DNA of 63,997 nt, the filler included, from Sphacelaria rigidula (Eukaryota): NCBI GenBank assembly GCA_964200075.2. It is 4 parts of 4 records of this genome, joined end to end, with 100 filler letters (N's around TTAATTAATTAA, not from the genome) between each part and the next. Parts side by side here need not be neighbours in the genome. Positions count along the whole stretch, not along the records: positions 32,269 to 48,293 come from CAXNAA020001512.1; 3 more parts are not named here. One strand, written 5' to 3'. This document shows, piece by piece, positions 202-57,780 of the stretch. Position 1 is the first letter of the stretch, and each line of letters opens with the position of its first letter. The notes beneath the pieces are model-generated. The model made no database searches. It was not told the DNA's origin and saw only the letters and a list, made by a program, of their open reading frames with translations. Position numbers and translations under genes: made by a program.

Positions 202-3200
202 CTCCCCGCTGCCGCCGTTGCTCCCTCGCCCACCACTGTAGCTCGAGTCCGTCCCGAGCTCGCTCCGGAAAATTCCAGAGCGGCGTGGGCCACCGCTGCC
301 CTCCGTTGCTCCCGAGAGGTTTCTGCGTTGTGCCACCTTGACTCCATCGCCTTGCCAACCCTTGAGAATATCTGTCACGTGAACCACACCTGCTGAGCCC
401 CCTCCCTGCATTGCCCGGCCCTGTGGAAGGGTAAAACGCGTGCATGTGTGTTTTGTAGTATACTCCATGCGTGTGTGTTTTCAAGACGAGGACAAACACT
501 TGGAGGGTGAGTCATGGTGAAAAGCACGCCCTAACCGCGAATTATTGTGTCTCTCTACATATATACGTATATTTAGATGTATGCATTCATGTATAGGGGC
601 GAACACTCAACACAAGCGGCAAGACCTGACAAAAACAGAGTTTTAAATAGATCTCACGTGACTCGCCGGCGACGACAGGTTCGTGTCACCGCCCAGGCCG
701 CTGATGACGGACTGGTCAGTACCCCAGCGGTCCTTCAAGTAGTCCTCGTCCTCGAAGTCCTCGTCTGAGGTGTCGTCCCCGTTGTCGATGGCCGAGGGGG
801 ATGAAGGGAACGCTCCATTCTGTCGCCTGTACCCGGCACCGCCGTAGGCGCTGTTATCGCTACCCGCGCTGAACAGACTGCTGTCGTCATACGTATCATC
901 CTGGATGGATGCACCACACCGTGCCGTCATGCAATGGATAATCAAAGGGTTAGCCAGGATATCATCAACTTCAACCACACACAACCTCTGCCACCTCCAC
1001 CCCCACATCAGCAGCCCCCACCATATCAACCACTACAACAAATGGACCCCGTTTTAGACGAGACGACGCGAATGCATGGAAGCATGAACGTTACACTACC
1101 TCACATGGCTCACACACACACGTGCTTACCAAACAAACGAACGCTCCTGTTCAATGATTATATGAATAAAATAGCAAACGAACGAACGTCTATCCTGTTC
1201 TCTTTTTGTCAACCGCTGAACATAAACACAGCGAAAATTCCCTGTGACACGCATTTCAAGTCACACCCTTCCAGCACATTGTGCAAAAGAATATCCCAAA
1301 AATTGGAGTTCTCGCTTGCAGCGACCATCGAAAGACGCAGGATAACACACGCATAGTCGGGCTCATTAGACCTCACACTTCCCTGCCGCTCATGCTGCTG
1401 TTTCTACTGCACATCACTTCACCTCATCCCAGTCATCATCGTCATTAGGCAGGTGCTCAACCATGCTGGGGAGATCTTCCATACTCAGGGGGCTTATGCC
1501 CACAAGGTACATGCACAAGTCTGTGAGGGCAGCCACCATTTGATACAGCCGGGTGCGCTCCGGTTGACCCCGCAAGGTCGGATCCACGTCGCCGTCTACT
1601 CCGACACACCCCGCCATGCGTTCCCCGTTTCATTCATTCGGGTCCAGCCAGTTTTATTTGGGGGGGCAAGGAAAGGAGAGAGGTGCTAGTGAAGCACTTG
1701 ATAACAAAAAAGGTTCCCTTATAACGGCCCACGTACATGAGAGGTAGATTACTTGCAACGGAACAAAAAAGGGGGTATTCACACGTGACTGGAAAACAAT
1801 ATAACCAGTGAACCTGCTTGTGTAATTGTAATGGAAGTAGAGATTTGAGTACAGCGTTGAAAGGATTTTCTGTGTTACTACCTGCCGTCAGCAAGTATCA
1901 GGCGTGAAAAAAGAGGGGTGGCAAACAAGACACTGTTTGAGTCTGTGCCGACAAGAGCCGAAACATGTGTGGAAATATATACCTTGCGGAAATATTGTGT
2001 AATGCATAACGGTGGTGTATATCAAATCAGTTTTGCACCATGTCGCAACTGCAAGTGCAGATAGACGGGAAAAGGGATGACTCGGGTACGACTGGCTGTT
2101 CGGGACTGCACCTCTAGGTGTGGTCAAACATGAAAAGGGAGGCAATAGATATGGACGGACGCTCTCAAGCTTCCTTCTCGGTTGCATTAAACCCCGAGAG
2201 CAACTTGAAAAAAAAATAGTCGAACGGAAACAAGCATCAAGAAAGATGCACAGCTTTCATTAGCGCCACCGACTGCCGGGGCGTCGAATGAGCAAAGCGT
2301 AATACTGATCCGTGCATGCGACGGACACGTCGATGATAATGCAGGTTCGTACAGCGTGTATTTCAAAGGCCGACGGAGCCAGATGTCAAGTGCAGCAGTA
2401 AGAGCAACTCGTTACAGTCATCCCTGGCACCAGAGAAGCCTGCCCTGCTCCCCCTCCTCATCTATTCCCCTACCCCGTCTTGACGGAGACCTGTAGTCAG
2501 TGATCCAATGCCTCGGGAGCGCAAAACACCCGCAGCCGCAGACATGATGTTGCGGATCGACTGACAAACCTTGTACGAGTAGGCCATTTTTAGAGTAGCG
2601 ACATGCCTATTTATAGTTTTGAGAAAATCTCACGTGCATATCCGAGCTGTTGACAAATGAATCATACTACGCCTACTGTGCGAATCTTCTGACAGCTCCC
2701 ACCGCCAAGCCAAACCGAGAAGCTGAGGCTTACCTCCTCGCGATGCTCCTCTTCCTCGCTGTTGCCGAGGGCCCAACACCTCCGCCTCCGCCTCCGCTGC
2801 CATCGATTCTCCCCAGCCAGCGAGGCTACTCGTGCCCCACCCAGTCGATGGCGTACCTTCGTCGGTGCCTATCCTCCCGGGAGCAACGTTGTCCTCGCTG
2901 GTGGTAATAGAGTTCGCAGGGGAATCGGCGGTGGCGGCAGCGGCGGTGGTACGCCCGCTCACGCGCTGGCCTGTGCCCTTCGCCCCGGCGTTGACGGCGG
3001 CATCCATCCCAGGATTAGGATATGGGAGAGGAGGACGGAGCGTCGAGGAGGCAAGATCGCTCCACGGTTGACCTTGAGATGCATCTCGCCGAGATCGCTC
3101 GCCGCCATCAGGTCGATCCTGGCTGCGCGATCTCGTCCTGCCGGTCCCTTCTTTGTGATCGGATCTCGAGGACGGTCGGGTGGACGAGACGCGCTCTCCC

Positions 3201-6200
3201 CTCGTGCCGACCTCAACAACGCGCGATCCGCGTCGCCTCCGGTTGAACTCAAACAAGTCGTCGGTCTGGCTCGCCGGGTAATCCCCGTACAGTCTTTGTT
3301 CCCGCACTCGGGCAAATGAAGAAGCATGGCCCGTCGTACCAACTACCGACCCTGGTACTCGGCTGCGGTCTCTGGCATCGACGTCCGAAGGTGTGGAGTC
3401 TCCACTGCCGTCCTTCAGTCGCTTATAGATGCCGCCATCTCGCCCGCCGGAAGGTTCCGTGTAACCCGCGGCGGGCACGGAGAAGAACCCGTGGGCAGCC
3501 GCAGCTGCGGTGGCGGCGTCGGCGGCCCCTCTTTCTATCCTCCCCGGCGACTCTACCGACCGTCCTTGTCGTGCTTTCCTGATGTCACGCACCCGCGTGA
3601 CGTCCACGCCGCCCGTGCCACCACCGCCGCTGACAGCCGAAGTAGCATCCCCTCGAACGCCCGGTCGTTGGTCTGTCACCACCTTGAATCCGCGAGTTTT
3701 GTCCTTTTCCCCACCAACCTGCTGTTGCTGCCGCCCGCCTTGGCCGCCCTGGTAACGCCGACTATCCGTAGCCATCTTGCTCTCAGCACTGGGTCGACTA
3801 CCGTCGGAAGTCTTGCGCTGAGGCAAGTCAAGGCTATCTCGCGAACGGGTAATAACGACTCTCCCGCCCCCTCCCGCGCCTCCTGCTCCCGCATTCTTGT
3901 CGCGACCTTCACTGTTCTCCTCGGCCGGAGGTGCCTTTCCCCGCTCACTCTCCGATAGAGTCTTCTTGCCAGTTTCCACAACGGGGGCCTTCTTACCGAA
4001 TAGGGACTTTCCCGCCACCCAACCCCACTGCGCCTTGCTCTTGCCGGCGCGCGCAGCGTTCTCCCCGCTGCCGGCCGCTGCTGCTCCTCCGCCCCCTCCA
4101 TCCGCATCCGCGCCGAGGTACCTCGCCCTGGCCGCACGCGCCTCCAACGCGGCGCTCGACCCCGCGCCGTCCGATTTGACGTCGCGGCGGACACCACCGC
4201 TCCCTCCACCCAATCTCCCGGGGATAGTATCGTCGTCGGCTACCGTGCTTGGCCTGCGGCCGAACGTCGGGAGCATGAGCTCGACAGGCGCATTGTTAGT
4301 GTTGAAGTGCGAGAAATGGGAGGAGACACGAGAGGTGATCGAAGAGGAGCTGAGGCTGCGAAGCAGAAGGGTGTTCGGGCTGGGTAGTGCTGGGCTCCGT
4401 GCGCCGCCGCGGATTGCGTCCATGCCACCGCGATGTACGCTTCCGCTGCCCACCGTCGTGGACATGTCGCTCCTACCGCGCACAGCACGAGCATATACCT
4501 GTTTAATTTCGGGCGGTAACAGATCGGCATAGAAGGTGACAACGGAGGCATAGCTGTCAGGAACGTATCAACGGTGACAACGGACGAAGCAATGGGCTGA
4601 TACAGCATTGGGCAAGACGGATTTGCCCCCAAGATCTACAGGGTAAATTGTTGCGGCCTCAGGGGAGATTCATGATAGCACCGTAGAGCGGCCGTAACTT
4701 TACTGCAACCACTTGTACACCTAGTAGGAACACAATGCGGGGACGACGCCAACATTCGAATTACGGAGCATTTCAAGTCCATTCCATCGACATGGTGTGT
4801 TGCGTACAAGATGCCCCATACAAATCAGACATGCACACCGGCGACGAAACATGCACAGAATAGCGCCATTCACCGTTGACAGAAAATTATCGAGGTCATC
4901 CCTTTTCACAACAGGGATTGAGTACTTTTTGGTTCTCCTCCGAAGACCTCCTTCCAGTTAGGTTTCTGGTTGGTGCTGTTCCTGCTTCCACTTCTTCTAC
5001 TCTGCTTGCCACATCTCCTTGTTTTTCCCCATTCCCCCCCCCCCTCCCCCCCCTTCGCGCGCATTTCCATTTTGATTACCATGGGTACGTACGCATATCG
5101 TGTGGATAATGACCACGCCTGGGTCTCTCGTGATCAGTTAGTGTGCGACAATCAATCCGATCAATCAATCAACGGAAGGAGTGCAATGAAGCATGCTCAT
5201 GATCCAATCAGTCTCGGGAGGGAAGGGATAGTGAAGTCACAGTTCAGAGTTTGTACTGGAGAATAATATGTGGGTAGAAATGTCAAGTGTAATGGAATTC
5301 CATTTCGATGTTCTCGACTTCTCCATGTGAAATGAAATATGGGTAGCAACTTCTAGTTCGAGATTTCCAACCCTCCTCCCCCTGTCGGGTTGGTGCCACT
5401 CGGGTTGTGTCAGTCACTGCGTACGCTAGGCAACCAGGTCACCTATTTTTTGCGTGCTTGTGTTTTCATTGCGGTAACCGTGATGGTGACCGAGCTAGAT
5501 CACAGTGGGCAGGGTGGGAGAACTTAAACTCCGCGCAAAGGGGATGATAACACTGTGCAGTGTTTAAATGGTGAGACGACCATGAGGCAGTGTGGAACTC
5601 GTGGCTGTCCCTTAGAGTGGCGATACCAAAAAAATGAAGATGAAGCAACTCATTGCTGGCTGTCGTTCGAATGCAAGATAATCAGTACGCTTCGAGCCGA
5701 ACAATCTAAGCGGGATGCAGCTCACCCTTCATGCGTGTGACTGAGCACATCACGGCGCTTCACGCTTGATGGTTGATCGCGAGATCAACGGTCTAATGAC
5801 TACGGCATGCAAGATAATGAGTAAAACCTCCCCCCCCCGCCCCCCTGCCCTCCTCCGCTGCCCCACCAGATAAAATGAACCAAATATAGTGACCGCAGTT
5901 GCACACTTACTCGCAAGTAATTGGTGCAAATAGCCTGCGGCATCCGGGTGACAAGCGTTGGGGCCTGATGCCTCCCCGCACCACCCTGCGCCGACCACGA
6001 GTACTCCACCCCCCACTCTTCGTCATCGTCCTCGTCCTCGTATTCTTCCTCTGAGCTATCATAGTGCACTCCGCGCCACGCCGTCCCCCCATCACCACGG
6101 CCGCCGCCGCGCTTGTTTCCACCATGTACGCCGCCGGAATCCACACTAGATCCGTCCGCGTTGGAGCCTCTGTCACCCGCATCGACAATGTCGCCGAGGT

Positions 6201-9200: not shown

Positions 9201-12200
9201 CTTCATGTCTAACAAACACCATATATGTAACTGGGGGCAAGGAAAAATAAGCACTTTGATTATGTCGGACAAAGAATCGCTGAGCGAAACGGAACGCACG
9301 CGAAATCAGAGGTTAATCATCACGCCCACGCAGGTCGCACTAACCCCGCTTTCCCACCTGGAGGAAAACTAATTTGACGCCACACGCGCGTGGTCACTTT
9401 CTCGTCAAACCGCACCTACGCCGCACATCACGACTCACGACATCCTGCGCACAACCCTCGAAAAACAAGACACTCGCATGCCACATCACTCACCTCCAGC
9501 CACTCCATCATCCGCTGCCCATGCATCGCTCGTCCTTGCGCCTTAGAGCTGGACGACGTTGGCCCACTACCTACCGCTGGCGAAGACAGCCCCCCGACGT
9601 TGACATCGCCTCCGCTACCCGCCTTGTAATCCGGAGACGCAACTGACGATCCACCCGCCTCTTCACCGTCTGGCCCAGCGCCAACTCTCAAACAAATGAG
9701 ATGGCACGCTCGTGGGTACCTTCGTATGGTGGACAACGATGGAGGTGAAAAGAGGGTGAGGGGGGATTGCGGACAGACATACAGACATACAGACATACAG
9801 ACACACAAGCGGACAGGTGGGCAAGCAGAGGGTGAGGCAACCGAACCCACACCGCACAGTACGTTATTGCGCAGGTACACACGAAAAAGGGGTACTGCAG
9901 CATCGCCATATGTAAACGTCGTAAGACGTGAATTGCGGGGCAGAAACGAGACAAAAAAAACAAGCAGGGCAGCGGAAAACACGTTGAAAGTCAGCCAAAA
10001 AACATGATACACGGCAGCATCATATTGCGCACATCAGACACGCTACGTCCATGCGCTTGCTTGCCTTGGGCAGCGGTTGAACCCGGTGATGCACAAGAGA
10101 CTTCGCCGTGCAAACCAGAAACTTCTTTGCGCGTGTATTCTCGCAGCTTTAGGTGCTAGTGCGTGGTGACAATCCCACACAGTTCCTACACCTTCCTACA
10201 GCTTCCTACACCGCAACACAAACACCGTAGGCATACATTGCAACACTGTGACTGACGATCAGGCCGTGCGGCACTTGCTCAACAACAGGCGTTTGTGATC
10301 AAAATGAAACAACGCGTAGACGGTACAATGAATACACGATACAACTTCTACCGAATACGCGCAACCGACTCACTTCACTATAGTGACTGCGGGACCGGCC
10401 CTCCCTCCTCTCAGCATTCGACCAACGACCCGGCACTTGTCCGGAATGCCCGTTAGCGCCTCGCCTCCGCTCCTGTCGAACGCGAGTGACGGCGGAAAGG
10501 ACGGACTCTCAGCTTTTCGGTCGTGCTCACGACACAGAGGAAGTGCTGCAACGCTCACTGCGTGTTCGCAAGCTCATCACGTCGCAAGAGCTCGGGAAAT
10601 GACTCAACCAGAAAATACCACAGTCCACGTGCTGTACAGCCGGTGAAAAGGGAACCAAAATGTTCGATTGAAAAAAAGCCTAGGTTGATACTGTACGAGT
10701 TAGTGCAAGCCGGCTCTCGGTAAACCTGTGTCAGAACGTGTTTTTCAACAAACCAAACAGGATCAGAGCCAACCTCCTCGCCACCAACCCTACAACACAC
10801 GACGTCAGAGCACCACTGCGAAGGGGACGGTACGACGGTACGATCATTAACCAGAACCAAGGAAGGCTCGCCAAAGAACCGAACATCAACTGTCAGACTA
10901 AACAGGCGTCAATCATGGCCGCCAGACGGACGACTGAACATCGTGTGGCAAACTCGAGACAAGAGTACAAAAGTACAAAAGATCACGTCAAATCGTCCGA
11001 ACATGATCGTCCGTCAGACTTAGTGCTTGGGCATAACCAACAGTTTCCCCATTTCACATCGCTCCACGGTCTCAATACATGCATCACTCATAATACCTGC
11101 CCCTCCCCTTCCCCTCTCGAGCCTGGCCCGGCGAAAAGTCAGCGTGCTCCGTCCCGACTTTTCAGAGATGCGAGTTCAATGGTTTCATGACTACGGTATG
11201 CAGGATCATGATTACATGAGTACACCCCCCTCCCCTCTCCAGGTGGTGCTGCGTCTCGAAAGAAATTCATGGCCAATGGTCAAATGACCAAGGCGAGTAA
11301 CAAGTGAGCACCCTCCCCCCTCCCCTCCTGGTCCGGCAAAAACTTGGCGTGCTCCCTCCCGGCTTTGTAGGGACGGACCACGTATGAGGTGAGCGTCGGT
11401 TGGCAATGACGCTGTAAAAAACGCCACTCACTTCGTACGCTAGGCAACCAGGTTACCGATTTTTTGCGCGTGCTTGTGTTATTTTTCGCGGTAACCATGA
11501 TGGTGGCCGAGCTAGGTCATACTGTGCGGGGTGAGAAAAGATCAATTCCACGCGAAGAGGGTGACCGTACTACATAACATAGTGTTTAATTGGTGAGACA
11601 CCCATGAGGCAGTGTGGAACCCGTGGCTGTCCCTGGAACTGGCGATACCAGAAAATGAAGATGAAGCAATTCATTGCAGGCTGTCATCCGAATGCAAGAT
11701 AATCCATACGCTTCGGGCCTAACAATTCCAGCAGCATGCAGCTCACCCTTCATGCGACTCGCCGTACACATCACGGCGCTTCGCGCTTGGTGATTGACTA
11801 CGAGCCTGGTGCGGCCAAAACCCAGCGTGGTCCGTCCCGGCTTCGTAGGGATGCGAGGTCAACCGTCTCAAGACTACGGCATGCAATATAATAAGCACAC
11901 CCCCCCTTCCTCGCCCTATCCCACCACAAAACGTAACGCGCTAGACTCACCCAGTTTTTGCATCTTCTGAATCAGGCTGGCTGGTGGCACCCCCCAACAG
12001 CCCCTTCAGCCCCTTGGCTATGTTCGCGCGTTGAATATCCCTTTCCCGGGCATCGTTCGGTGAAGATTCTCCCGTCGCCCCCGCGCCGAACAACTCACGA
12101 TCCCAATCTGTGTCCACCTCGTCCGACTCGCTTCGTCCCGCCAGCGAGCTGAAAGAGCACACGAACAAATACCGTCCCGAACAAGAACGGTGAAAGTGAA

Positions 12201-16039: not shown

Positions 16040-16139
16040 NNNNNNNNNNNNNNNNNNNNNNNNNNNNNNNNNNNNNNNNNNNNTTAATTAATTAANNNNN
16101 NNNNNNNNNNNNNNNNNNNNNNNNNNNNNNNNNNNNNNN
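16040..16139. other. Artificial contig spacer
   Basis: 44 N + TTAATTAATTAA (stops in all six frames) + 44 N. Confidence 0.97.
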
Positions 16140-24812: not shown

Positions 24813-25190
24813 TCAGTCCTTCTTCACGACCTTCTTCGGCAGAAGGACAGCGTGGATGTTGGGCAGCACGCCGCCCGATGCGATCGTCACTTCGCCGAGC
24901 AGTTTGTTCAGCTCTTCGTCGTTACGGACAGCCAGCTGGATGTGGCGGGGCACGATACGGGCCTTCTTGTTGTCGCGTGCGGCGTTACCAGCCAGCTCCA
25001 GGACCTCGGCAGTCAGGTACTCCAGAACAGCTGCCAGGTACACGGGGGCACCGGCGCCCACACGAGACGCGTACTTGCCCTTCTTGAGGAAACGGCCGAT
25101 ACGGCCGACCGGGAACTGCAGGCCCGCCTTAGCAGACCTGGTCACCGACTTCTTGCCCTCACCGCGTCCGCCCTTTCCCTTACCAGACAT
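24813..25190 (-). CDS. H2A: Histone H2A, canonical type, intronless, 125 aa
   Basis: [10 protein letters not shown]...[15 protein letters not shown]...[30 protein letters not shown]...[18 protein letters not shown] at 25190; no C-terminal SQ motif. Confidence 0.98.
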
Positions 25191-25556
25191 GATTGATGTT
25201 CCTGGTTGATTGCAGTGTGTCGGAGATGTGTGTTGTGGTGCTGGATGGAAGTGTGGGGAGGTGGGGAGGTCACGGGAGCACAACAGTGCAATCTGTCTGT
25301 CTGTTTATCAAAATTCAAATTTGAAAAGGTTCGAGAACGCCTCTATCGTGAAGCTTGAAAAATCGCTGATTGGCTCACATAAACGTGAGGTGCAAACAGG
25401 AACATTAAATAAACATGCTTCCTCCACTACCAATGTTGAATTTTGAACTCGATTTGCTGAACAGTGCAGTGTGCCCCTCGAGCTCCCCCCACACCCCATC
25501 ACAACCACATCTCACCGTACCCAACCTCAGCCACCGACACGTAACAAGAAGAAAAA
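25191..25556. promoter_or_regulatory. Bidirectional H2A/H2B promoter
   Basis: 366-bp divergent spacer; TTGAATTTTGA in opposite orientations at 25308-25318 and 25436-25446; CCAAT boxes at 25369-25373 (-) and 25430-25434 (+). Confidence 0.7.
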
Positions 25557-25907
25557 ATGGCCAAGACACCGTCGAAGAAGTCTGCGAAGGCCCCCAAGAA
25601 GGCCGGAGACAAGAAGAAGAAGGCCAAGAAGGTGGAGTCGTACTCGTCGTACATCTATAAGGTGCTGAAGCAGGTGCACCCCGACACGGGGATCTCCAAG
25701 CGCGGCATGTCCATCATGAACTCGTTTATCAACGACGTGTTCGAGCGTGTGGCAGGCGAGTCCGGCAAGCTGACCCGCTACAATAAGAAGTCCACCCTCT
25801 CTTCTCGCGAGGTGCAGACGGCCGTGCGCCTGATGCTCCCCGGAGAGTTGGCCAAGCACGCTGTGTCCGAGGGCACGAAGGCGGTCACCAAGTTTACTTC
25901 TTCCTAG
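25557..25907 (+). CDS. H2B: Histone H2B, intronless, 116 aa
   Basis: [38 protein letters not shown]...[32 protein letters not shown]. Confidence 0.98.
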
Positions 25908-32168: not shown

Positions 32169-32268
32169 NNNNNNNNNNNNNNNNNNNNNNNNNNNNNNNN
32201 NNNNNNNNNNNNTTAATTAATTAANNNNNNNNNNNNNNNNNNNNNNNNNNNNNNNNNNNNNNNNNNNN
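32169..32268. other. Artificial contig spacer
   Basis: 44 N + TTAATTAATTAA + 44 N. Confidence 0.97.
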
Positions 32269-33462: not shown

Positions 33463-33689
33463 TTAACAGGACCACGAGAAGAAGCGAGTAACAAAGCAAG
33501 CGCCCAAAAGCAGCATGTTGATCCGTCGCAGGGCGGGGCGACCAATTAACATGCTGCTTTCGGGCGCTTGCTTTGCTCTTCGTTGTTGCTTTTGGATCCC
33601 GCTAAGGTGTGCCCGTACCAAACCGCCCTTCCTTCAAAGAGTTCTCACGCCTTTTGAGCAAAACACGAATCAGTACTCCCGGCACTGTA

Positions 33690-36600: not shown

Positions 36601-37950
36601 TTACATGCATATTTCCGCCCACGACGATTACGTTTATCTCTCGACAGCCAACGTTTTAAACCATTTTGTACGTGACAATGATGCCACTTTCAGTAGCGGA
36701 CCAACCCGGCGGTCTATGGGTTCACCCTTGACCGCAGAGTGTTTGAATGTTTTGACGGTAGGAGAAACGACATTTACAAATCTCTAGCCAAAAGGGGTAG
36801 ACTGGCGTCCAGAATAAATGGAACGACAACACACACACACACGAAACAGTATTGCATTGGCACGCATGGACTAAAATGGGCTGCTTCGCGGTCAAGGAGT
36901 CGATCCTTTTCATATCCGGAACCTTCTGTTCCGAGAATCTGGCCTCTGACAGCCTCGTCACTCCCTGGGGGATGGCCGTAGAGCAGGCGTAGATCACTGC
37001 TAGTAGGCTGCTCGGATGCTAAACGAATTGCTGTCGCAAGCTTCAGTTCCAGGCCGCTCCTTAAGGCAGACCAGAATAAAAGTCTGGAAAAGTGCCTGAT
37101 TTGAACTTCTACGTCGTTTTACTCCGTGAGAGAGAGCTACAGTAGGCGGATTTTGACACCTTGAACTGCATTGCTGTACTCGTTGAGACGGTTCCAGCAC
37201 ACCTGCGCGTTTTTATGGTGGCCGCAGTCTCTTTTTTGCCAAGCTGGCGTTTTTCTCGGAGACCTGTCATTTGTCTTGGGGACCGGTCAAGTCCAGGCAA
37301 ATCTCGTTTTTTTTTCTGGACTTGACCAGTCTCCGAGACAAATGAGCGATCTCCGAGAAAAATGCATAGGTATGCCGGAGCCGTCTCGTCGGGTACAGTA
37401 AAACATCGGAAGGCGTCAAAATCCGCCCAGCTCTCGTTTAGGGCGTACGGCAACCGACGTAGAAGCTTCAAAAAGGCACTTTTACAGATTTTTATCCTCG
37501 TCTGCCATAAGTAGCGTCCTCATACAGGGTTGAGCGGGTGGGACCAGGAAGCGTTTTCTTGCCTACACCCTCAAGATGTAAAACCCAACCGAGGTCGCCC
37601 TCCCTCCCCCCAGTTTTCATCGCACGAGCCCTGCATCGGCGGTGGGAGTTTGTGAGGAGGACAAGCTCACCGTTGCGATTCTATGTGTGTTGCATTCGAG
37701 CGTGTTGACTTGCTGTGCCCGTTCTGCTCAGTTCGCTGTGGGTTCGGGCGTATATCTCTCCACAACCTCAGATATCATGATCGAAACACCACCCGATGAC
37801 ATCCGCACGTATCGCCTACAACGCGTACACCCCAACAAACATTATCACAACGTGGTTCAGCTGTTCAGCAACAGCTACTGTGGGTGTTGACCGAATGCAC
37901 CTGCGGCTCTTGGCGCAATCACGATTGCTGTACTGTCCCGTACTGTGTAA
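33690..37950 (+). pseudogene. Decayed, interrupted FAR1/MULE-type (Mutator) transposase
   Basis: Motifs in canonical order: YKKYAE*AVG (33758), DCVFTFSV..SGLWMAT...H (33830-33913), RAAFE...FDDTTY (34968), HVGI...GHMCFGAIVV (35925), FVYSGG (36092), AVVTVVP/STAVHLFCV*Y (36310), KWA/FAVKESILFISGTFCS (36874), SWIM-like HNVVQLFSNSY/ECTC (37893). Stops and frameshifts present. Confidence 0.6.
37065..37506. mobile_element. Foldback MITE with GG...CC ends and TTAA/ATAA flanks (Kolobok- or Sola3-like)
   Basis: GGCAGACCAGAATAAAAGTCTG is inverted relative to CAGATTTTTATCCTCGTCTGCC, and the arms meet near 37310. Related arm fragments at about 49010-49400 and 52520-52680. Confidence 0.75.
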
Positions 37951-39672: not shown

Positions 39673-40780
39673 CTCCGTTGCTCGAGAGCCTGCCGTGGGA
39701 ATCGTCCACTGCTGCTGATGCTGACCCCCCGAGGCAACGACCGCTATCCATGGGTGCATTGGGAGTCGGAGGTGGGTCCACGTCAAGACAAACGGACAAT
39801 GGAACAGCTAGCAATGTCCTCGATACGGAGAGCAGCAGCACTTCACGGCGATTAGTTCCTGCGATGGCTAGCACCAACACTGCCGCCAGCGCCGGCGGTA
39901 ACATTGCAGATATAGCGGAGCCCCAAACCTTGGACGGTGGGAATAGAGACATAGTGTCTGCGGCGGACAGTGGAATTCCTGGGCCATGGGTAAAACTGCA
40001 GTCTCTGAGCGGGGAGACGGGGGTGTCTTCCAGGAGGGAGAGATATGGTTCGCGTCAAGAGTCGGTGCTGATGCCAGCAGCAGGCGAACCAGAACTGAAC
40101 ACGCGGCGAGATCAGCAACGGTCGGTTTCGGGCGCAAATATAATTAGAAACAACCAGCAGCAACAACGGTCACGGGTGGAGGAGAGCAACGCGAGCGGTA
40201 GCGGCCGCAGCACCAGTACCACCGGCACCATCTTGTCCGCGCTGAGAAACGACGGCGACAACACGACAGCGGACGTACCCAAGGTTCAGCACCGGATTAC
40301 TGCTTCCGACGTTACCGTCGCTGCGGCTGTCGCCATCGTAGCCACTGATACACCTGCCGTTTCCGCTGATGCTCCTCAACCCTCTTCAGGCCCCGGAGCA
40401 TCGAGCTCGACAAGAGTAGCAAACGAGCGGGAAGAGCAAGCCGCGAGCTCAAGCATTTCGACCAGCACTGCGACTGCTATTCCTGCGGGGACAGCGGCGA
40501 CGGGGGCGACGGGGAGTGCGCGGGGAGTAGCGACGGAGGGGAGTGAACAGCTGCAGCAACAGGCTACGAGGATGCCGGAGGCGATGCAACAGTCGGGTGA
40601 CGAGGGTGAAGGCAGGGACAAGTGGCGGTTTGGAAAATACAAATCGGGCGAGAGCAAAGTTGAGCGTGGCGAAAAAGTGTGGTGCCCTCGTGCGGCGCTG
40701 GCGAAAGCATGTCGGAGGGAGCCTAGACTCAACAAGGCGATCGAAGCGTTTCAGCGGAAGCATCCAGACGCCACACTCAT
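39673..40780 (+). CDS. Large internal exon, low-complexity Ser/Ala/Thr/Gln-rich, unknown function
   Basis: 388-codon ORF; pyrimidine tract plus AG at 39671-72; donor AT|GTGAGT at 40781; ordered-looking end WRFGKYK...VWCPRAALAKACRREPRLNKAIEAFQRKHP. Partner exons not securely identified. Confidence 0.65.
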
Positions 40781-41769
40781 GTGAGTTTTCGGGTCTGCAC
40801 ACGTGCTATTTGTGCGTGCGGTTCGTGCGTGTTCTCACTCATGTTTTGTACTATAGAGATTTTTTGTTTCCTCCCACGCACAGTGTGGCTTCTGTGTGTT
40901 TTGTGCTCTCCGAGGTATGTCCTTCGATTTATTTTCTTCCTTCTTATGATAGCGTACGTCAGATAGCATGATGTTCGTGGCATATATATGTATATATATT
41001 TGCCGTACCTTCGACGCTGTTTTTTTCCTTAGTTTTCCACCTTTTTGACGTCTTCCGCTTCGAATGTTTCATCTCTTTGGGGGGCGATGTCGCCATCTTT
41101 TTGGAAGAATGTCGCCGGCTGCCTATTCAACGCGGCTACAGCCACCCCGACGGTCATACCTTAGCAGCTCCTCTTTTGTCTGTGAGCGCCACCCCTGATG
41201 ACGATATTCCGAAAATCCGTGGGACCCTAACCTCAAGGTTTTATGATGTTGTGACTGATAACGACGACATCGTTTTTCATGTACCTTCTTGTGTTCTTTT
41301 TCTACTAGCTGCTGACTCGAGCGCACCCCTCCCCCCGAGGTGGTGTGTATCGTCATGTGGTGCTCTTCCTGTTATGCCTAGTATATTCGTACGTAGAGCT
41401 GTCCCTCTAGAGGTACAAGGTTAGAACCCTGCGACTCGTATCGCTTTTGCTGGTGATCGTGGATCTCGAGTTTGGCTCCCTTCCTGTTTGGCCTCGCGTG
41501 TTTGAGTGGGCCAATGGGCCCTGCCTCCAGTAGCTGGAATGGTCGCATATGACATCGGAACTTAGAGGGCTAGCAGTAGTCCTTTTTCCGTCCTGTTTTT
41601 TCTTCTTTTTTAATATATATATACTTATATTTTTATTCATCTTGTAACGCGTCTGTGTGAATTGTGTCTGGGTCCGTTTTATTCTATTATTTCTCTTTTA
41701 CCCTGGCTCGGGGTAGTTAGCCTGTGACCAAGGAAGGCGTCTGATATCGGAACGGTTTTCATTGTGAAG

Positions 41770-41802
<33 letters not shown>

Positions 41803-42105
41803 GTGCGGGATCCCACCGTAGTGTGGGGTCCCACTGCAGTGCGGTCAGAATCGCTTGTCACTGGTTCGATCCGCTATACTAGCGTCAAGTGATTGCACTA
41901 CGAAATACCAGTATAGTGGGGAATTCCAGCATACTGCGGTCATGCCGGGCTGGCGACCCGTCTCACGCCGCTGGGACTCTCACTGTAGTTCCAGTGGGTG
42001 ATGTGGGGTTGATCCTAATAAATATTTTCCCCGCCCGAGAGGCTGAGGCTGCCTGTCGAAACGGGCGTTCGTCTACCCGTGTCAATCCCTACTGGTTATC
42101 CGGCA
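41770..42105 (-). mobile_element. Probable SINE or LINE 3' end with a terminal hairpin and (GTT)n tail
   Basis: (AAC)n at 41770-41802 is immediately adjacent to a hairpin GGGATCCCAC...GTGGGGTCCC. The 5' boundary is a guess. Confidence 0.45.
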
Positions 42106-43094
42106 CAGCTGCATATAATAGCAGAGGAAGGGATTGATAAAAATCGTTCTTGCACACGTACGATAGCTCGGAGGAAAACAGGACGTGATAGACTAGAACA
42201 GGTCAAATGTACCGGCGATAGTGTGTCGTTTTAGAACGCGTTGTAGAAGGATTTGCGCTGATACGGTGTCGATTTGTTTTCTCGGCGCAAGGAACACTCC
42301 CCGGATACCATATCTCGAGCATGGTGGGTGAGGGCAAATGGGGTTACTGAAACGACGAGAGATTCGCGGAGACTGCGGCGTATATCATGGACTGCTGTGA
42401 GGTGTCATACCCCGATCGGTAGCAAGCCCTTGAAGTGAATGGCTTGAATATAGACCACGCCAAATACCGACAGGATGGCTCGCACGTTCATAACATGTAC
42501 GTCAAGTGGAGAGGAGGGGGGGGGTGAGAGAGGATGGCAAGGTGCGTAAATGCCGGTGATATCGGAGTGCTCGGCGACTCACGCAACACCGATGTTGAAA
42601 GACAACGGGGGTGGATTGTAAACTCAAACCAGGTCAGTGGTAGCAGCAGCAGCAGCAGCAGCAGTATTCTCGCCTGAGGATGGGCCACCACCGCTCTACG
42701 AGCCGGCTGTATCTGCAGAGAGAGAGCCGTCTGGATGAGGAGCGGCAGCGCGGTCGAGGAGGCGGAAGGGCAGCGCTGACCCTGGAGACGCGAAGGGTTC
42801 GGAGGAACAGCCTGGGTATAAAGTGATCGATCGTGACAAGCCCGTCGTCGGGTGCGTGGGAGGATTCCATGCGACAAATGGCGTGGCAGGGAGGTCTGTG
42901 GGTGCTAAAGACGGCGTGATCGCCAGAGCAGACCCGCCCGGCGACGGGGAGGAAACCTTGACAACGTATTGAGCATCTCAACTTTGAAGCCGGCGCTGGA
43001 GCACTCCGTAGAGAATCGAGGGCGCAGTTCTCAACATGTCTCTAAATTCCTTCGGGCTGAAGTTGTGGTCTTATGAGCGCGCGCGCGCGGGGGA

Positions 43095-43830
43095 TGTACT
43101 CATGATCTTGCATGCCGTAGTCTTACGATCATTGACCTCGCACCCCTACAAGGACGGGACGCAGCACGCCGGGTTTTCGCCGGACCAGGCGAGCGCGCTC
43201 GCTCGCGGGGGGCTGGGGGGGCGTACTTATTTGTTGCTTGCCTTGGTCGTGTGACTATTAACCACGCATCCCATTAGAGACTGAGCATTGGGGGGAAGGG
43301 GTTGGCTCATGATCTTGCATTCCATAGTCACATGGCCATTGCCTTCATATCCCTACAAAGCCGCGACGGAGCACGCTGGATTCTCGCTAGACCAGGCTCG
43401 CCATCACCAAGCGCGAAGCGCCGTGATTTGTTCGGCGAGTCGCATGACGGGTGAGCTGCGTCCTGCTAAGATAAATCGACCAGAAGGGTACCGGTCATAT
43501 TACATGTGGTTCACAGCCTACAATGAGTTGCTTCATTTTCTACATCACCACTTCCAGAAACAGCCACGGTTTCCACACTGTCTCATGGGTGTCTCACCAC
43601 ATAGAATCTGCGTATACTGGCATCACCTTTGCCCAGAGGTCAAGTTCTCCACCCCGCACAATAATATCTAGGTCTACCACCATCATGGTTACCACAAGAG
43701 AGATGCCAACAAAGAAAAAAAAAGGTAAACTGGTTGCCTGGCTTGCGCAGTAAGTGGCGTGTCTTACAGCGTCGTTGCAAGCCGACGCCAACCCTTTCAC
43801 TCTTGATGGGGGAGATAGGTCCGCGCAGAA
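43095..43830 (+). repeat. G-tract-bounded repeat cluster (B-short, A, B-long)
   Basis: Modules start GTACTCAT, GTACTTAT or GGCTCAT after G-runs at about 43097, 43223 and 43304. Confidence 0.8.
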
Positions 43831-43949
43831 TACCTCCCCCTTCCCCCCCCCATGAGATCTGGTCAGGTGATCCAACCCACCGGCGATATGGCGAAATGTA
43901 GGATTTTCATTCGAGATCTCCTGCCATAAGTGTCGAAGCCCTAAATCTA

Positions 43950-44240
43950 CTGTATCATGTAGGATTTTGGCCCGTACTCCGCCGTAGATGTTCTTTCTTG
44001 CGGAAAGGCGGCGATCGAACCACGTGTGTTCTCCATAGCTGTTGTCCACGGACTGCGTCGCCTGTCCTTCTGTCAACGCCGCCAGACCTGACTCTGCTCT
44101 GCTCTGGCGGCGTTGATGGAGGGAGAGGCGAAGCATTGCATGGACAGCATCTATATAGGGAAAATATGTGGTTCGACCGTCACCTGTCTGTAAGACGAGA
44201 AGACCTACGGCAGAGTACGTGTCGAATCCTAGATGATGGA
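43950..44240. mobile_element. Foldback hairpin of about 290 bp
   Basis: Centre TCAACGCCGCCAGA...TCTGGCGGCGTTGA (44073-44116); imperfect pairing extends to ATCATGTAGGATT / AATCCTAGATGAT. Confidence 0.75.
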
Positions 44241-44584
44241 GTGCATGTAAGGCACTGATCACAAGAGTTTCTTATCACATTCCCATTGTTTGAACCTTGC
44301 GACTGCGAAACATTTAATTTGAGTCATCGCATGCCGCTGGGGACGTTTCGTGATTTGAGTTACAGGTACGGATGCCGCCGCAATATAGATCCGCCGAAAA
44401 CACGTCGCAGTCGAAATGTTGACCCACTTGATCGCTTGGCGAAGGAAGAGTATACACTCTGGTCCGACTTGTATGTCAATGCGTATTGCTTGGAGTGATG
44501 GGTTACTGGTGAAGAAAAGCAAAGATCCTCAAGTCTTCTTGGTGAAAGGATGGACCGTTCGACTCCCGACCTTGTCTCGGAGCA

Positions 44585-46082
44585 CCTTAGTCAATTGACG
44601 GTCTCACGGGAAAAGGGGGGAGGGTGGAGGGTACTCATGATCTGGCATACCGTAGCCATATGATCGTTGACCTCGCATCCCTATAAAGCCGGGACGGAGC
44701 ACGCCGAGTGTTCGCCGGACGAGGCTCGCAGTCAATCACCAAGCGCGAAGCATCGTGGTGTGTTCGGCGAGTCGCATGAAGGGTGAGCTGCACTGTGCCA
44801 AGATTGTTCGTTACGAAGCGTGCTGCGTATTTAGCTTATGGACGGCAGCCTCCAATGGGTTGCTTTTTTATTTTCTGGTATCCCCACTTCCAGAGACAGT
44901 CACGGCTTGTACACTGTCCCATGGGTGTCTCACCATGTAAACGTTACGTAGTACGATCATCCCCGTTGTGCGGAGTTGAGGTTCTCCCACGCCGCAGAAC
45001 ATGATCTAGCTGGACTACCATCATGGTTACCGCAAAAAAAAATGCAAGCGCACAAAAAGATTTGTAACCTGGTTGCCTAGCTTACGTAGTGTGCTAGGCT
45101 TGTCTTATAGCGTCATCGCCAACCGACGCCAACCCCATCGGGGGTCCGCCCCTACAAAGCCGGGATCGAGCACGCCGGGTTCTCGCCGGACCAGGGAAAG
45201 TGGGCGGGGGGGGGAGGGACGTACTCATTTGTTGCTTGCCTTAGTCGTGTGACCATTGACCACGCATCCCTTTCGAGACGGAGCACGGGAAAGGGGGGCG
45301 GGGAGGAGGAGGGTACTCATGATCATGCAGGCTATAGTCATGAGACCGTTGACCTCACATCTCCACGAAGCCGGGACAGAGCACGCCGGGTGTTCGCCGG
45401 ACGAGGCTCGCAGTCAATCGCGAAGCGCCGTGATGTGTGCGGCGAGTCGCACGAGGGGTGAGCTGCACTGTGCTAAGATTGTTCGGTACGAAGCGTGCTG
45501 ATTATCTCGTTTATGGACGGCAGCCTCCAATGGGTTGCTTCATTTCCTGGTATCACCATTCCCAGAAACAGCCACGGGTTCCACACTGTCTCATGGGTGT
45601 CTAACCCATTAGACAATACATGGCCGCTGCCGCCGCGCCTCGGTGGTGTAATGGTCCGACTGTCGCCATTAGGGTGGAGAGAACGGAGCTTCAATTCTCG
45701 ATGCGTTGTTTTTTTCCTCGTGGTGTAGGAAGCTCACCGTGGAAAGCGTGAGAACGTGAGTAGACAAAGTAGTCGACTAGGTTTGTTTGACGTGAGTTGA
45801 CGCGGTGCGGTAGTGCTGACCTAATGCGCGAGAGACCAAAATGAAAGGGGCCCCGGTAGATGGGCTGATCCCTTGAGACCACGGACTCATCCCGAGGAAG
45901 GGGAGGAGTTGAAAGTGTGAGAGGGGTAAAAAAAGCACGATTATCACCTTTGCGCAGAGTTCGGGTTCGCCATCCCGCACAATAATATCCAGCTCTAGCA
46001 CCATAATGGTTACCGCACAAAAAACGCATGCGACAGAAAAACCCGTTAGCCTCATTGCCTAGCTTACGCAGTGAGTGGCGTA
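44585..46082 (+). repeat. G-tract-bounded repeat cluster (B-long, A, B-long interrupted by a SINE)
   Basis: B-long 44631-45195, A 45222-45287, B-long from 45313 resuming at about 45935 after the SINE. Confidence 0.82.
45627..45928 (+). mobile_element. tRNA-derived SINE, family 1
   Basis: A box TGGTGTAATGG (45644-45654) and a degenerate B box GCTTCAATTCT; second copy at 49735-50039 (-). Confidence 0.78.
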
Positions 46083-47144
46083 GAAAGTAGTCGGGTACCC
46101 CAGTTTCTGGCAATAATATCACGATCGCCGGAAACCACACGCCGCTTTCGAGAGGGAACGAAATTTCACACACGTGTTCCTGGAGGTTGGAATGTCGGTC
46201 GGCCCAGTGGATTCGTTGGGGTCACAAGCCGCCGAGTGTAGCTGGGATCCGTAGAAACCAGTGAATCCGACTGGCATGCTAACCAAGGAGACATGCGACC
46301 TCGGGCTTAGCTCCAGAAACACGCAAAGGTCGTCTGGAAACTCTCAAAACCGGAGTGAGGTTTCTGCCAACAAAATTCATGTGCTGGTCTATGAATAAAC
46401 CTGTACCCCCCCCCCCCCCCCCCCCCCCCCCCCACCCCCCCCCCCCCCCCCCCCCGGCTANNNNAATGGTGTTTTGAAACCCTCAAACCCCGAGTGAGGT
46501 TTTCTCCCACACAACCCATGTGTGTGGTTTTGTAAAAACCCTTCCCCCCCCCCCCCCCCCCCTCCCCACAGATCCTGACAATCGCGTAGGGTTCGTTCGT
46601 TCGTGCAGCTTGTTGGTTTTGGTTAAATATTGATTTATTATGTGTCGCTGTTGCAGTCAGAAATGACTTGATGAGAGTGCAGGAAATGGTTCCGAAATTT
46701 ACCACCAATGAACATTGTAGTTACTTTCACTTTCGTTCTCAGACCCTGGTCCCGTAGAGGTGCAGAATATGCGGCGATATTTTGCTAGTTTTTGTAGTAG
46801 CTCTGGTACAGGCTGCTTGCTCACCTGACGCTTTGTTGGGGAAAACATGTTAGGTGTTATGCTATTACCGATGGTTTTGCGATATCGTAAAATGCTCTAA
46901 AAGGTAACGAAGTGTCTCTCAACCTTGAGAGTTCAGATGGGGTTTACATTTTTGTCGTAGATCTCCCACCCGCGACTGGGCAACGCGCCGTGATTAAAGC
47001 CGGCAGAGCCACGTTATCGGCGGGAAAAATTCTGATATGAGTTATATTCATATTTGGTTGCTTGCCCGAAACGAGTCGATATCTACGCTTTTTTTTGTTT
47101 TTCTTGTGTTGCAATTCATGTGAGCTCACACGTTCCACCTCAGG

Positions 47145-47467
47145 ATGGACAAAGGCAGGTACAGCATGAGGTCAAAGCTGAAGACGTTCACGTTCACTTT
47201 TGAAACGGAATAGTTGAAGAGGAAAACTTCCTCAGCAGATGGGAAAAAGTAGAAAACTGAAAATGCTCCATATTTACTTCTTTGTGTTTTCCGTTTTGGT
47301 CGGGTTCCCCCAACCCCCCGACCCTCCCTCCCTCTCCGCGTAGATACATCGGCTACGCTGGATCTCGCCTCTTCGGCACAAGCACGAGCGTATCCGACGT
47401 GGACCTGAAGGGCTTGTTCATCCCGAAGACGACCCCGGAAAACAAAGAACCGCGAAGAAACCTCAAG
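47145..47467 (+). CDS. 5' exons of a Pol-beta-superfamily nucleotidyltransferase, RlaP/YcgL (PF10127)-like; rest of the gene is off-contig
   Basis: Exon 47344-47467 (pyrimidine tract-TAG| ... AAG|GT) encodes YIGYAGSRLFGTSTSVSDVDLKGLFIP, the hGSxxxGxxxxxSDxDxKGhF signature. A phase-compatible start mini-exon 47145-47158 (ATG GAC AAA GGC AG|GT) gives MDKGR; this mini-exon is less certain. Confidence 0.7.
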
Positions 47468-47544
47468 GTGCCATAGGTGACGGTCTTTGCAGCCCCCCAC
47501 ACTGGTAACAAGTGTTTTTGGGGATCCGAAGATCTATCATCACC

Positions 47545-47800
47545 AAGGGTTGGTATTCAGAGAGGGGTGGTATACTGCGTACCCACAATACAGGACTCTA
47601 GATGATGACATGATGCCAAAAATAGTCAATAATTCGTGACCCAGGGTTGTTATTCAGAGAGGGGGTCGTATACCACGTATCCATAATACAATACAGTCTA
47701 TATGATGACATTATGCCACCAGTAACTGTACTTCATGACACGAGGGATTCTTATTCAAGGGGGTGATATACCGCGTATCCCCAATACAGGACTGTAGATG
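47545..47800. repeat. About 98-bp tandem repeat, 3 diverged units
   Basis: AGGG.T..TATTCA.AG.GGG.T..TATAC..CGTA.CC..AATACA at about 47546, 47643 and 47743. Confidence 0.7.
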
Positions 47801-48097
47801 TGTGATAATACGCGACAGCAGATCCCGAAGATTTCTGTGGTCTGGTCGCTATTGTCGCTGTTGCGGCAATTCTTTTACCCCCCCCCCCCCCCCCCCCCCC
47901 TCGAGGCCGGGGCGCCCGCCGCGGGCGGGGGGGGGGGGTCACGGGGGAAGGGGAGAGGAACGAGAGCACACAACCNNNNNNTACAGGACTGTAGATGTGT
48001 GATAATACGCGACAGCAGATCCCGAAGATTTCTGTGGTCTGGTCGCTTTTGTCGCTGTTGCGGCAATTTTTTTCCCCCCCCCCCCCCCCCCCTATGG

Positions 48098-48293
48098 TGA
48101 GCTCCGTCTCGAAAGGGATGCGTGGTCAATGGTCAAACGGCTAAGGCAAGCAACAAATGATTACGCCCCCCTCCCCCCCGTCACGTTAGACACCCATGAG
48201 GCAGTGTGAAGGCCGTGGCTGTCTCTGGAAGTAGCGATACCATAGAGAGGCAAGCAACTCATTGTTGGCTGTCATCCAAATGCAAGATAATCA
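48098..48293 (-). repeat. G-tract module A plus a B-core fragment at the contig end
   Basis: GCTCCGTCTCGAAAGGGATGCGTGGTCAATGGTC...GGCAAGCAACAAATGA followed by a C-run and core sequence. Confidence 0.78.
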
Positions 48294-48393
48294 NNNNNNN
48301 NNNNNNNNNNNNNNNNNNNNNNNNNNNNNNNNNNNNNTTAATTAATTAANNNNNNNNNNNNNNNNNNNNNNNNNNNNNNNNNNNNNNNNNNNN
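48294..48393. other. Artificial contig spacer
   Basis: 44 N + TTAATTAATTAA + 44 N. Confidence 0.97.
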
Positions 48394-55530: not shown

Positions 55531-56484
55531 TAATATCAGACTCGCGACCGATTCAAGGAACGTCGTCGTAGCTTGCTTACCACGGGACAAGCCCAGACTG
55601 TCCAAGAGAGGGGAAAGGACCTGAAGAATGATTGCCCATCATAGAAATTTCGGCAAACTTTGCGTCGCATGGTGAGCGGAGATCACGAGCGCCGGCCGCT
55701 CAGAACAGCAGTGGATGGACGGTACGGTACGACCATGCCGCGATATATTCATATATTAATATAAAATATGGTCGAGGGAGCCCTCGCCGTCAGCAATTGT
55801 TTTCGTAAACCTTGACTGACCAGTCAAGTCCATGCGGTACTTGTTTGAAAGAAGGGAACTTCCATCCTAGTCCACGGTTTGTGTAATTCGCCCGCATCTT
55901 GTTTTTGGAAGAGAAAAAAAAAATGAAGGTGTAGGTCTTCGACCACGGTATAACACAACCCTCACCCAGCTGTCGGCCGGACTACCTCCCAAGCACAAGA
56001 GGTTGGCTGTTGCTCGCATTAACCATTGTCCAGGTGCGGGGAGTGAGGGGGGCAGGGGGAGGGTGAGATCGCTGCCGCCGTGACGTATGTCCCGTCTCTA
56101 TGATACTGCAGCACGATGTGCATCCGCCTTGCAGTTGCAGTCGCACGTTCATCTCGGGTCCTAAACTGATCTCGTCTCCGAACACTTAGAACACTTCAAC
56201 AGGCGGTGCTCTCCTTTCCTCGGTGCATTCGGGAGGAGAGGTTATAAGGGGGGAACCACTCCCCAATATTAGTACGCCTCCCGCCATCAACGCCCAACAT
56301 AACGCAGTTCACAACATCAAGCCCGCAATAGAGAATAACCCAAGCAGCAGCAAAAAGCACGCAGATACAACTATCCAGAGCATGACAACCAGACCCCCTG
56401 AAAAAATGCGCCCCTTTAGTCCCTGCCCCCTGTGATTCCTACCCCCTTTGCCCGCCCCCTACCCCCTCCAAAATACCCACTCAC

Positions 56485-57780
56485 TCTTGCAAGAAGCTCT
56501 TGTTCATATCCTCGAACTGCTTTTGCATGCGCGCCCAATCCGATTGGTCCCCAAACGCACCATCCCCATCGTTTCCTACGCCGCCGCTGCTACCATTGCC
56601 CAAACTCCCCAAGGCGCTACTCCCGCGCGCCCCATCGGCTGCTTTCTGTCCTCCCACGTCCAGCGGCAACCCCAAGCTCGCCAAGAGGTCATTAGCGTCT
56701 GCAGCGTCACTGCCGAAAGCAGTCAGCGGGTCAAAGAGAGAGTTGGTCTTGGAGTCGGCCATGTTAAGCCCCTCCCCGGCCCCCGTGTCGGCGCCCTGCC
56801 CTGTCCTCGACCCCGTCAAGCTGCGGCTGTCACCCGCGCCGCCGCTCGCCATGGCCATCTTGAAGAAGTCCGGCAAATCGTTGTCGTCATCATTTGCGGC
56901 GCCGGTGCCGGCATCGGCTAGGGCTGCATCTTTCAAGTCCTGCATTAGGCTGTTTTGTTCAGGGGTTGATGGGGGTGAGGGGTAGGGGCAATTGAGCAAG
57001 AGGAAGGATTAGCTAGGGTACACAAACGGTGGCACGTTTGAAATTAATAGTTGAACGTGAGATCAGCTCGGGCGGCATGTTTTGTCTTCGAAGTTGCAGA
57101 TTGGTGTTCGGGTGGAGGGTTTCGGTATGTTCTGTGCGAACTTCGCTATTGAGTGAGGTGGACGGAGGGCATTTCCCTTCGTGGGCATCATAATCGCAAG
57201 AGGCTTGCATTAGTTCATCAGTACAGTACAATGGCTAGACTGCAGTAATGCGTTGAGCTGTGCCGTACTGCACATTCGCCACGCTGTCACCTTACATGTC
57301 CAACCCGTCACATGCTGTCGTGTGTACGTATGCACAACCAAGGGCCCCTCCCCTCCCCCCCTCCTACAAGCACATGATACAAACGATTCATGTGCGACAC
57401 TTTGCCTGCTTCAAACCTGGGCTGTAGTGGACGTCGATAGACGGGGCAAGACTTTTCGCCACGCTCTCATCTCAGCGCGCCCGACACCTCCCGGACAGCG
57501 CTGTGCAGCGCGGTCAGCGGTCAGCTCATTCGTACCGTCTCATGGATCAGAATAGTTACTGTCGACCCCACGAGCATAAAAACACAAAGATTTTTCCCGA
57601 GGCATCATGGTTGCGCATGCTCGACCTTTGTGTCTGTGAGTACGGACCTGTTTTTTTTGCTATTGTGGGAGCACATGTAACACACCTTGAAAATTCCTGA
57701 TCTCCGGACGTCCCGTGCCCGAAGAAATCCGGCAGGTCGCCAGCGTCATCAACGCCACCCGCAGCATCCCCGAAGGTCTC
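56485..57780 (-). CDS. Two internal exons of an acidic Gly/Ala/Asp-rich protein of unknown function
   Basis: Exons about 57780-57686 and 56949-56485 join in phase (QEFS-S-LMQDLKDAALAD); the strong donor GA|GTGAGT at 56484 implies further exons. Confidence 0.65.

Follow-up and report, generated by a model that had tools for sequence, protein, structure and literature searches.

The question raised by this locus in Sphacelaria rigidula is whether a short exon with the signature of a Pol-beta nucleotidyltransferase marks a genuine algal gene and, if so, which enzyme it encodes, where the gene came from and what the protein might do. The exon lies near the end of one contig (C1512, CAXNAA020001512.1) in a stretch of 63,997 nucleotides, hereafter the window, which is composed of four separate contigs of about 16 kb each, taken from an assembly of 244 Mb in 27,214 contigs and joined by three identical N-linkers (Table 1). 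Because these contigs are unlinked, neighbourhoods across the linkers are artificial; gene linkage across them was rejected, and nothing past the third linker belongs with the RlaP-like gene. We are confident that the exon belongs to a nuclear, single-copy, intron-rich brown algal gene for a Pol-beta nucleotidyltransferase of family PF10127. The fuller reading, a brown algal RlaP of the NrdC.11 subtype that is derived from a prokaryote or phage, vertically kept, and a putative RNA 3'-nucleotidyltransferase, is the one that we favor, with only modest confidence.

Table 1. Positions of the gene parts, database orthologues and other features (window positions unless a contig is named).
Feature	Position or accession	Strand	Description
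Contig C1512	32269-48293		carries the RlaP-like exons
Three identical linkers	16040-16139, 32169-32268, 48294-48393		44 N + 12-nt AT spacer + 44 N
Upstream coding exon	39673..40780	+	about 1,108 nt, 5' end predicted
Intron	40781..47343	+	6,563 nt, GT..AG; interspersed repeats at about 43080-46080
Coding exon	47344..47467	+	124 nt, phase 2 to phase 0; GS..FG and SDxD with the first two catalytic Asp
Next intron, start	47468..48293	+	runs off the end of C1512; RNA loose end behind 47468
C-terminal exon	G000:C23675:5547-4909	minus	639 nt, AG/GT ends; found with an Ectocarpus fragment
Database orthologues	Ectocarpus Esi_0051_0060/CBJ26973.1, Scytosiphon CAM9132293.1, Cladosiphon g18891, Undaria g05559
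Rejected mini-exon with G47144	47144-47158		15 nt, flanked by CAG and GT; no contig shows inclusion
RtcB gene	G000:C5641:8078-8655 and C5508:4895-10141		spliced, split over two contigs
Histone H2A	24816-25304	-	intronless
H2B-like frame	about 25530-25900	+	adjoins H2A, divergent; judged by eye
Interspersed repeats	43080-46080, 5400-5800, 11100-11900, 48076-48293		70-90% identity, up to about 800 nt, both orientations
Degenerate tandem copies (three)	47537-47800		97-98-nt spacing, inside the intron just after exon 47344-47467
Duplication spanning an N gap	47785/47982		111 nt; looks like an assembly artefact
MITE-like short inverted repeats	33472-33595, 37145-37427, 44035-44154		arms 55-70 nt, 76-84% complementary
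Low-complexity open frames	2633-4567, 56484-57008	-	645 aa, 175 aa

The initial annotation had described an exon with clean splice signals, and this part of it was confirmed. Translation from 47345 gives the quoted peptide, which bears the signature GS..FG/SDxD; the acceptor AG ends at 47343 behind a pyrimidine tract, and the donor GT starts at 47468. Both splice ends were used in all four RNA-like runs that we examined, out of eight listed; the four come from one study and their RNA nature is guessed, no run being recorded as RNA. The exon was found in each of them within a contig of 3,267-3,382 nt at a word depth of 130-198; since contig depth cannot rank expression, we claim splicing and not a high level. 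The exon matched one place in the genome. The algal nuclear setting assumed at the outset was also borne out, and the possibility that C1512 is a contaminant or a viral insert was rejected because of its long introns and the repeat families that it has in common with the three other contigs of the window. The interspersed repeat family listed in Table 1 occurs on several contigs, including that of the C-terminal exon, and no coding frame was recognized in it. The histone pair lies on one of the three other contigs, and the two low-complexity frames, which gave no match in a Pfam scan, probably represent exons belonging to other genes.

A search of 1.84 billion representatives with the exon returned five matches, two of which were real: a Scytosiphon protein and a metagenome ORF, probably the same exon read through into the intron. 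The other three, tandem-repeat proteins, were dropped as chance matches. In the orthologue searches, at least 11 of 12 and at least 10 of 11 of the matches listed came from Ectocarpus, Scytosiphon, Cladosiphon or Undaria, and the named eukaryotic matches among those listed were all brown algae, the sources including a broad eukaryote protein set. The orthologues are known among the matches listed, and other eukaryotic members may therefore exist. Full-length orthologue models measure 724-864 aa; the window exon is 53-61% identical to the brown algal orthologues, and exon borders of the gene coincide with those of partial orthologue models, both at the first motif and at the ..LK end. The N-termini of five of six orthologues contain an 11-residue window of hydropathy 1.6-2.1, and all six contain a basic, Ser/Thr-rich, acid-poor stretch, the hydrophobic stretch coming first. 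Such N-termini resemble an organelle presequence, which we treat as a lead from sequence features. In the databases these orthologues stand as hypothetical proteins, or are unnamed or named automatically, and already carry the Pfam label; a literature search on RlaP, the Ectocarpus accessions and brown algal RNA repair found no publication on the brown algal gene.

The assignment of the exon to PF10127 (RlaP), proposed from its motif, was upheld. PF10127 was the best Pfam match of the exon peptide alone (E 0.042), at 14 bits and hence below the gathering cut-off of 23 bits, which was passed by six of seven brown algal orthologues (28.9-34.2 bits; Esi_0051_0060 scored 19.6). The exon matched phrog_388 at E 4.2e-7, and a brown algal protein matched it at E 7e-21 versus 1.3e-3 for the next family; 357 phage records were matched, the named ones being nrdC.11. 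The 41-aa exon peptide alone had no match among longer proteins, NCBIfam or PDB. The GS..[YF]G and DxD signature is present in the window exon and in all nine orthologues that contain this block, and an NTxxDxD block with the third Asp is present in 11 of 11 orthologues; the model described below suggests which of the two Asp in that block is catalytic. The expected distinction from eukaryotic PAP/TUTase enzymes also held, as the exon and seven orthologues gave no Pfam match to PAP, TUTase, OAS or cGAS profiles, or to the domains that accompany them, at E up to 1 or 10. In an Atlas search the Undaria core matched RlaP clusters, mostly viral ones, with scores of 0.95-0.96, and the full Cladosiphon protein scored under 0.9.

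The subtype, given at first as RlaP/YcgL-like, had to be revised: the protein is like T4 NrdC.11, not like YcgL or PfRlaP. Using a comparison profile built from 161 phage, bacterial and metagenome proteins (333 positions), we found that the brown algal orthologues match in three collinear blocks, about 6-43, 52-139 and 244-326 of 333, with E values of 1e-23 to 7e-33 (Z=1e6). Profile positions of about 140-243 were unmatched in all five orthologues that reach the C-terminal block, and low-complexity sequence stands there instead. The KYG.KGSR, YG.RA and DW motifs of the relatives, which were taken from this alignment and are not a published definition, are missing in the algal proteins, where only KY/RF is left. 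Because the central subdomain and these motifs are lost, the algal protein is a variant and not a plain member of the NrdC.11 subtype, and its substrate may therefore differ.

RlaP was reportedly named by Burroughs and Aravind in 2016. In the available text of PMC12776372, two RlaPs from Pseudomonas extend an RNA 3'-OH by one or two NMPs and prefer damaged-tRNA mimics and Mn2+, RNA being the sole substrate used there; RlaP is described as consisting of an enzyme domain and a helical domain and as having three Asp, and T4 NrdC.11 is placed in cluster 5, of 'unknown function', while the assayed enzymes belong to cluster 1a. Given that the assayed enzymes lie apart from T4 NrdC.11, activity can only be extrapolated from the Pseudomonas enzymes in vitro, and by this analogy we consider it reasonably likely that the algal protein acts on RNA 3' ends. 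The enzyme would attach one or two untemplated NMPs at the 3'-OH of an RNA, most likely a tRNA, that has been cut or trimmed, and the end would then be re-ligated or marked for turnover.

An AlphaFold2 model of the Ectocarpus protein P0012 had a pLDDT of about 70-97 over the core and a disordered region at residues 225-420. The Asp pairs lie on adjacent-type strands, and helices at 423-487 correspond to the C-terminal helical domain. This domain, a feature of RlaP, was found in the C-terminal exon on contig C23675 as well as in the model helices, and its link to the exons on C1512 is a predicted one. The best viral fold matches were phage nucleotidyltransferases (E 1.8e-8). In the PDB, no match reached E 0.001 or better and coiled coils dominated; the top nucleotidyltransferase fold was Hailong HalB (Foldseek rank 1, E 0.12, Z 8.8, rmsd 4.5, 154 residues aligned), and kanamycin nucleotidyltransferase was also among the top ones. 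One could envisage from these folds that the same gene, with the same origin, serves another acceptor, making an oligonucleotide signal or nucleotidylating a protein or small molecule, for example in antiviral signaling. Such a role would be in keeping with the disordered sequence that replaces the relatives' central subdomain and several of their basic motifs, and the NrdC.11 subtype has no assay on record. However, these fold matches are weak, with 8-14% identity, and they had no RlaP structure to compete with, as no RlaP chain was found by profile in the PDB copy searched; moreover, the sequence is that of PF10127, whose assayed members used only RNA in the available text of PMC12776372. 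We therefore regard a different acceptor as unlikely and keep to RNA 3' ends as the preferred substrate.

For the phylogenetic analysis, 314 loci were reduced to 297 near-full ones (17 short loci were dropped) and then to 85 representatives at 50% identity, to which five further rows and five algal proteins were added. The resulting quick tree (195 columns, unrooted), from which the window gene was left out, contained one brown algal clade with an SH-aLRT of 100 and a stem of 1.11 changes per column. Its neighbors, with a support of 88, were four metagenome proteins, two of which had long branches; the contigs of these proteins carry prokaryote-type genes. When the window gene was included in a 40-row tree, on 66 columns, it fell within the algal clade (92) with an end branch of 0.86, and the grouping of the algal and metagenome proteins was supported at 95. 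Several Campylobacterota rows were among the top scorers on the algal profile, in a selection of loci biased by the queries. The orthologues of the four genera are thus shown to cluster in a single clade among proteins of phages and bacteria, and the affinity to bacteria and phages that the initial annotation proposed is supported by these closest relatives. Since the tree is unrooted, donor and direction are inferred from distribution, and on this basis the gene is probably of prokaryote or phage origin. The notion of an acquisition can be kept; its restriction to this lineage was too narrow, because at least four brown algal genera have the gene with the same intron positions, and the acquisition therefore predates their split. 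A single transfer, with a bacterium, plasmid or phage as donor and an ancestor of these algae as recipient, would have been followed by the gain of introns, disordered inserts and an extended N-terminus, and by vertical descent.

The long stem would also fit a gene that is older and wider in eukaryotes, either in other stramenopiles or derived from an endosymbiont, so that its limitation to brown algae would reflect sampling. The presequence-like N-termini point the same way, as do the orthologues being known only among the matches listed and the small number of eukaryotic PF10127 members that the 2025 preprint mentions, in its available text, with no names given (PMC12776372). We consider this improbable, because the named eukaryotic matches listed were all brown algal even with the broad eukaryote set included, no cyanobacterial row was found among 80 genome loci, and the alphaproteobacterial rows did not group with the algae in the tree. 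Seaweeds are chronically infected by giant viruses. Entry of the gene through an integrated giant virus (a Phaeovirus or other NCLDV) has in its favor that brown algal genomes contain many viral insertions and recruited viral genes, according to the main text of 10.1101/2024.02.19.579948, and that the fold is also found in NCLDV proteins (Klosneuvirus, E 1.3e-3; Terrestrivirus). These are only 13-15% identical, however, compared with 17-22% for the best phage matches; three scans of viral contigs gave nothing above about 30% over the domain, and the contig showed no viral gene around this intron-rich locus, which makes this route quite improbable. A transfer from a bacterium, plasmid or phage remains our preferred reading.

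We turn to the structure of the Sphacelaria gene itself. In the spliced contigs, the sequence 5' of 47344 matches window positions 40751-40780, after which the genome continues with GT. The 3' end at 40780 is indicated both by the RNA loose end and by tblastn with orthologues (E 5e-6 to 1e-4 for five of them, 0.024 for Scytosiphon). The exon that ends there begins with Ser/Ala/Gly/Thr-rich low complexity and continues with a WCPRAA..KHPxAT helix and the first strand of the enzyme domain. Its predicted acceptor at 39672 has a pyrimidine tract and CAG and would agree with the 1,317-1,442 nt of transcript found upstream in the spliced contigs; if this acceptor is used, 209-334 nt extend beyond the large exon, and the excess probably represents one or more earlier exons. 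No first exon was singled out among 28 candidates, the best E value with a profile of orthologue N-termini being 0.16. The 40780/47344 junction keeps an open frame of 410 codons with no stop. Because 47344 is spliced to the end of a long low-complexity exon, the motif lies at least 340 residues from the start of the protein, not about 10 as had been thought, and the 46 or so residues believed to be visible grow to about 410 codons within the window, with a further exon on another contig.

That exon, on contig C23675, encodes a Thr/Pro-rich insert and a C-terminal helical motif in 213 open codons. It is 51-55% identical to the orthologues, matches the prokaryote profile at E 4e-7, and ends where two partial Ectocarpus models end. 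Orthology and the single copy argue that it is probably part of the same gene as the exons on C1512. Downstream of the window exon, the spliced contigs contain 1,700-1,843 nt, enough to complete an orthologue-sized frame. The exon that follows 47467, whose first 30 bases are known from RNA, was not found in the assembly in a search with two motifs, nor was the exon of the third Asp and middle block with five queries that included protein queries. A third motif gave one match, at contig C97, which was rejected as the next exon on account of its differing flank, its lack of an acceptor and the three matches that the control gave. The presence of the next exon in RNA and its absence from the assembly point to an assembly gap. 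A degenerate or inactive copy in this species, which the long end branch (0.86 on 66 columns) and the missing third-Asp exon might suggest, is very improbable: GS, G and SDxD are intact, the 410- and 213-codon frames are open, splicing uses canonical sites, the transcript has its full size, and the exon seen in RNA points to a gap in the assembly.

The initial annotation had placed the start of a short protein at an ATG mini-exon (47145-47158), joined to 47344, with an in-frame ATG, a good AG|GT donor and 46 open codons. This model is hardly credible, since four of four spliced contigs use the 40780 donor in place of 47158, the three short contigs that alone cover the mini-exon (depth 3.8-4) run unspliced through 47158/47159, 96 of 400 random 500-nt stretches taken from the window contain such a phase-matching ATG..AG|GT mini-exon by chance, and the model drops the conserved upstream helix, scoring 45.0 bits on the brown algal profile versus 100.6 for the 40780/47344 join. 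The 6,563-nt intron contains three phase-matching ATG mini-exons. Taken with G47144, the segment would at best be a cryptic exon, in frame and seldom used, whose inclusion would break up the first strand of the enzyme domain.

An RNA ligase partner had been suggested as a further search. This genome has no operons; we saw no ligase gene on C1512, and an RtcB gene was found on other contigs (Table 1). RtcB is expected in a eukaryote. A PF09414 search of the genome gave nothing; a PF10127 search of the genome likewise gave no match although the RlaP-like gene is present, and empty family searches here, such as that with PF09414, therefore show nothing. In a survey of 83 ORFs of at least 200 aa from 29 loci of near relatives, RNA ligases occurred within 3-4 kb in three loci and were absent from the scanned ORFs of the other 26; CCA/polyA-polymerase heads occurred in three of the 29. 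Among five loci with NrdC.11-type genes near the algal clade (L008, L228, L272, L022 and L261), NAMPT was found at three, NUDIX at two and CCA/polyA-polymerase at three, a context that is a recurring phage neighborhood of NAD salvage and tRNA upkeep.

It is tempting to go further and propose that a phage-type RNA-end repair enzyme has been domesticated in brown algae alone and is imported into plastid or mitochondrion by a long N-terminal presequence, restoring tRNA or rRNA ends there; we regard this as a speculative and rather unlikely proposal. If true, an organellar RNA repair step would have been borrowed from the arms race between phages and bacteria, and this would be the first eukaryotic RlaP with a role. 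Our literature search on RlaP found no paper on a eukaryotic member. RlaP was first assayed in late 2025, for the Pseudomonas subtype only according to the available text of PMC12776372; a conserved, spliced, single-copy version that is present in the model Ectocarpus offers a eukaryotic handle for knock-out and localization, and could show whether seaweeds recruited a phage-style RNA repair step. The surprise is moderate, since horizontal acquisition is predicted for about 1% of the genes of brown algae (10.1101/2024.02.19.579948, in the main text of which the word 'nucleotidyltransferase' does not occur) and the Pfam label is already attached to the orthologues. What is new here is a spliced, extended brown algal RlaP like NrdC.11; the family itself was already known.

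The window gene agrees with its brown algal orthologues in the order of domains, in the WCPRAA helix upstream and in where the introns lie, but is more diverged, with 55-64% identity over 66 core columns. T4 NrdC.11 (PHROG 388) shares with the algal proteins the collinear GS..[YF]GT/SDxD, NTxDDxD and K..xHAxR..FPL blocks, and its type provides both their best phage sequence matches and their best viral fold matches. Whereas the NrdC.11 type is about 330 aa long and intronless, the algal proteins have 724-864 aa and come from spliced genes. They are extended at the N-terminus by 270-330 residues, contain two low-complexity inserts and lack the central subdomain and the KGSR, YG.RA and DW motifs. 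The Pseudomonas enzymes PfRlaP and PaRlaP, as described in the available text of PMC12776372, have in common with the algal proteins the Pfam family, three catalytic Asp, the third of which is known in the algae from the orthologues, and an enzyme domain followed by a C-terminal helical domain. They belong to a different sequence cluster, however, and the Pfam match of the algal proteins covers the first 50-60 of 249 positions; the Pseudomonas genes lie between rtcB and rtcA, unlike the algal gene, which has no ligase on its contig, and their activity was shown in vitro, whereas that of the algal protein is predicted. With the eukaryotic PAP, TUTase, OAS and cGAS enzymes, only the Pol-beta fold is in common, and the fold matches to them are weak (E 0.28 or worse).
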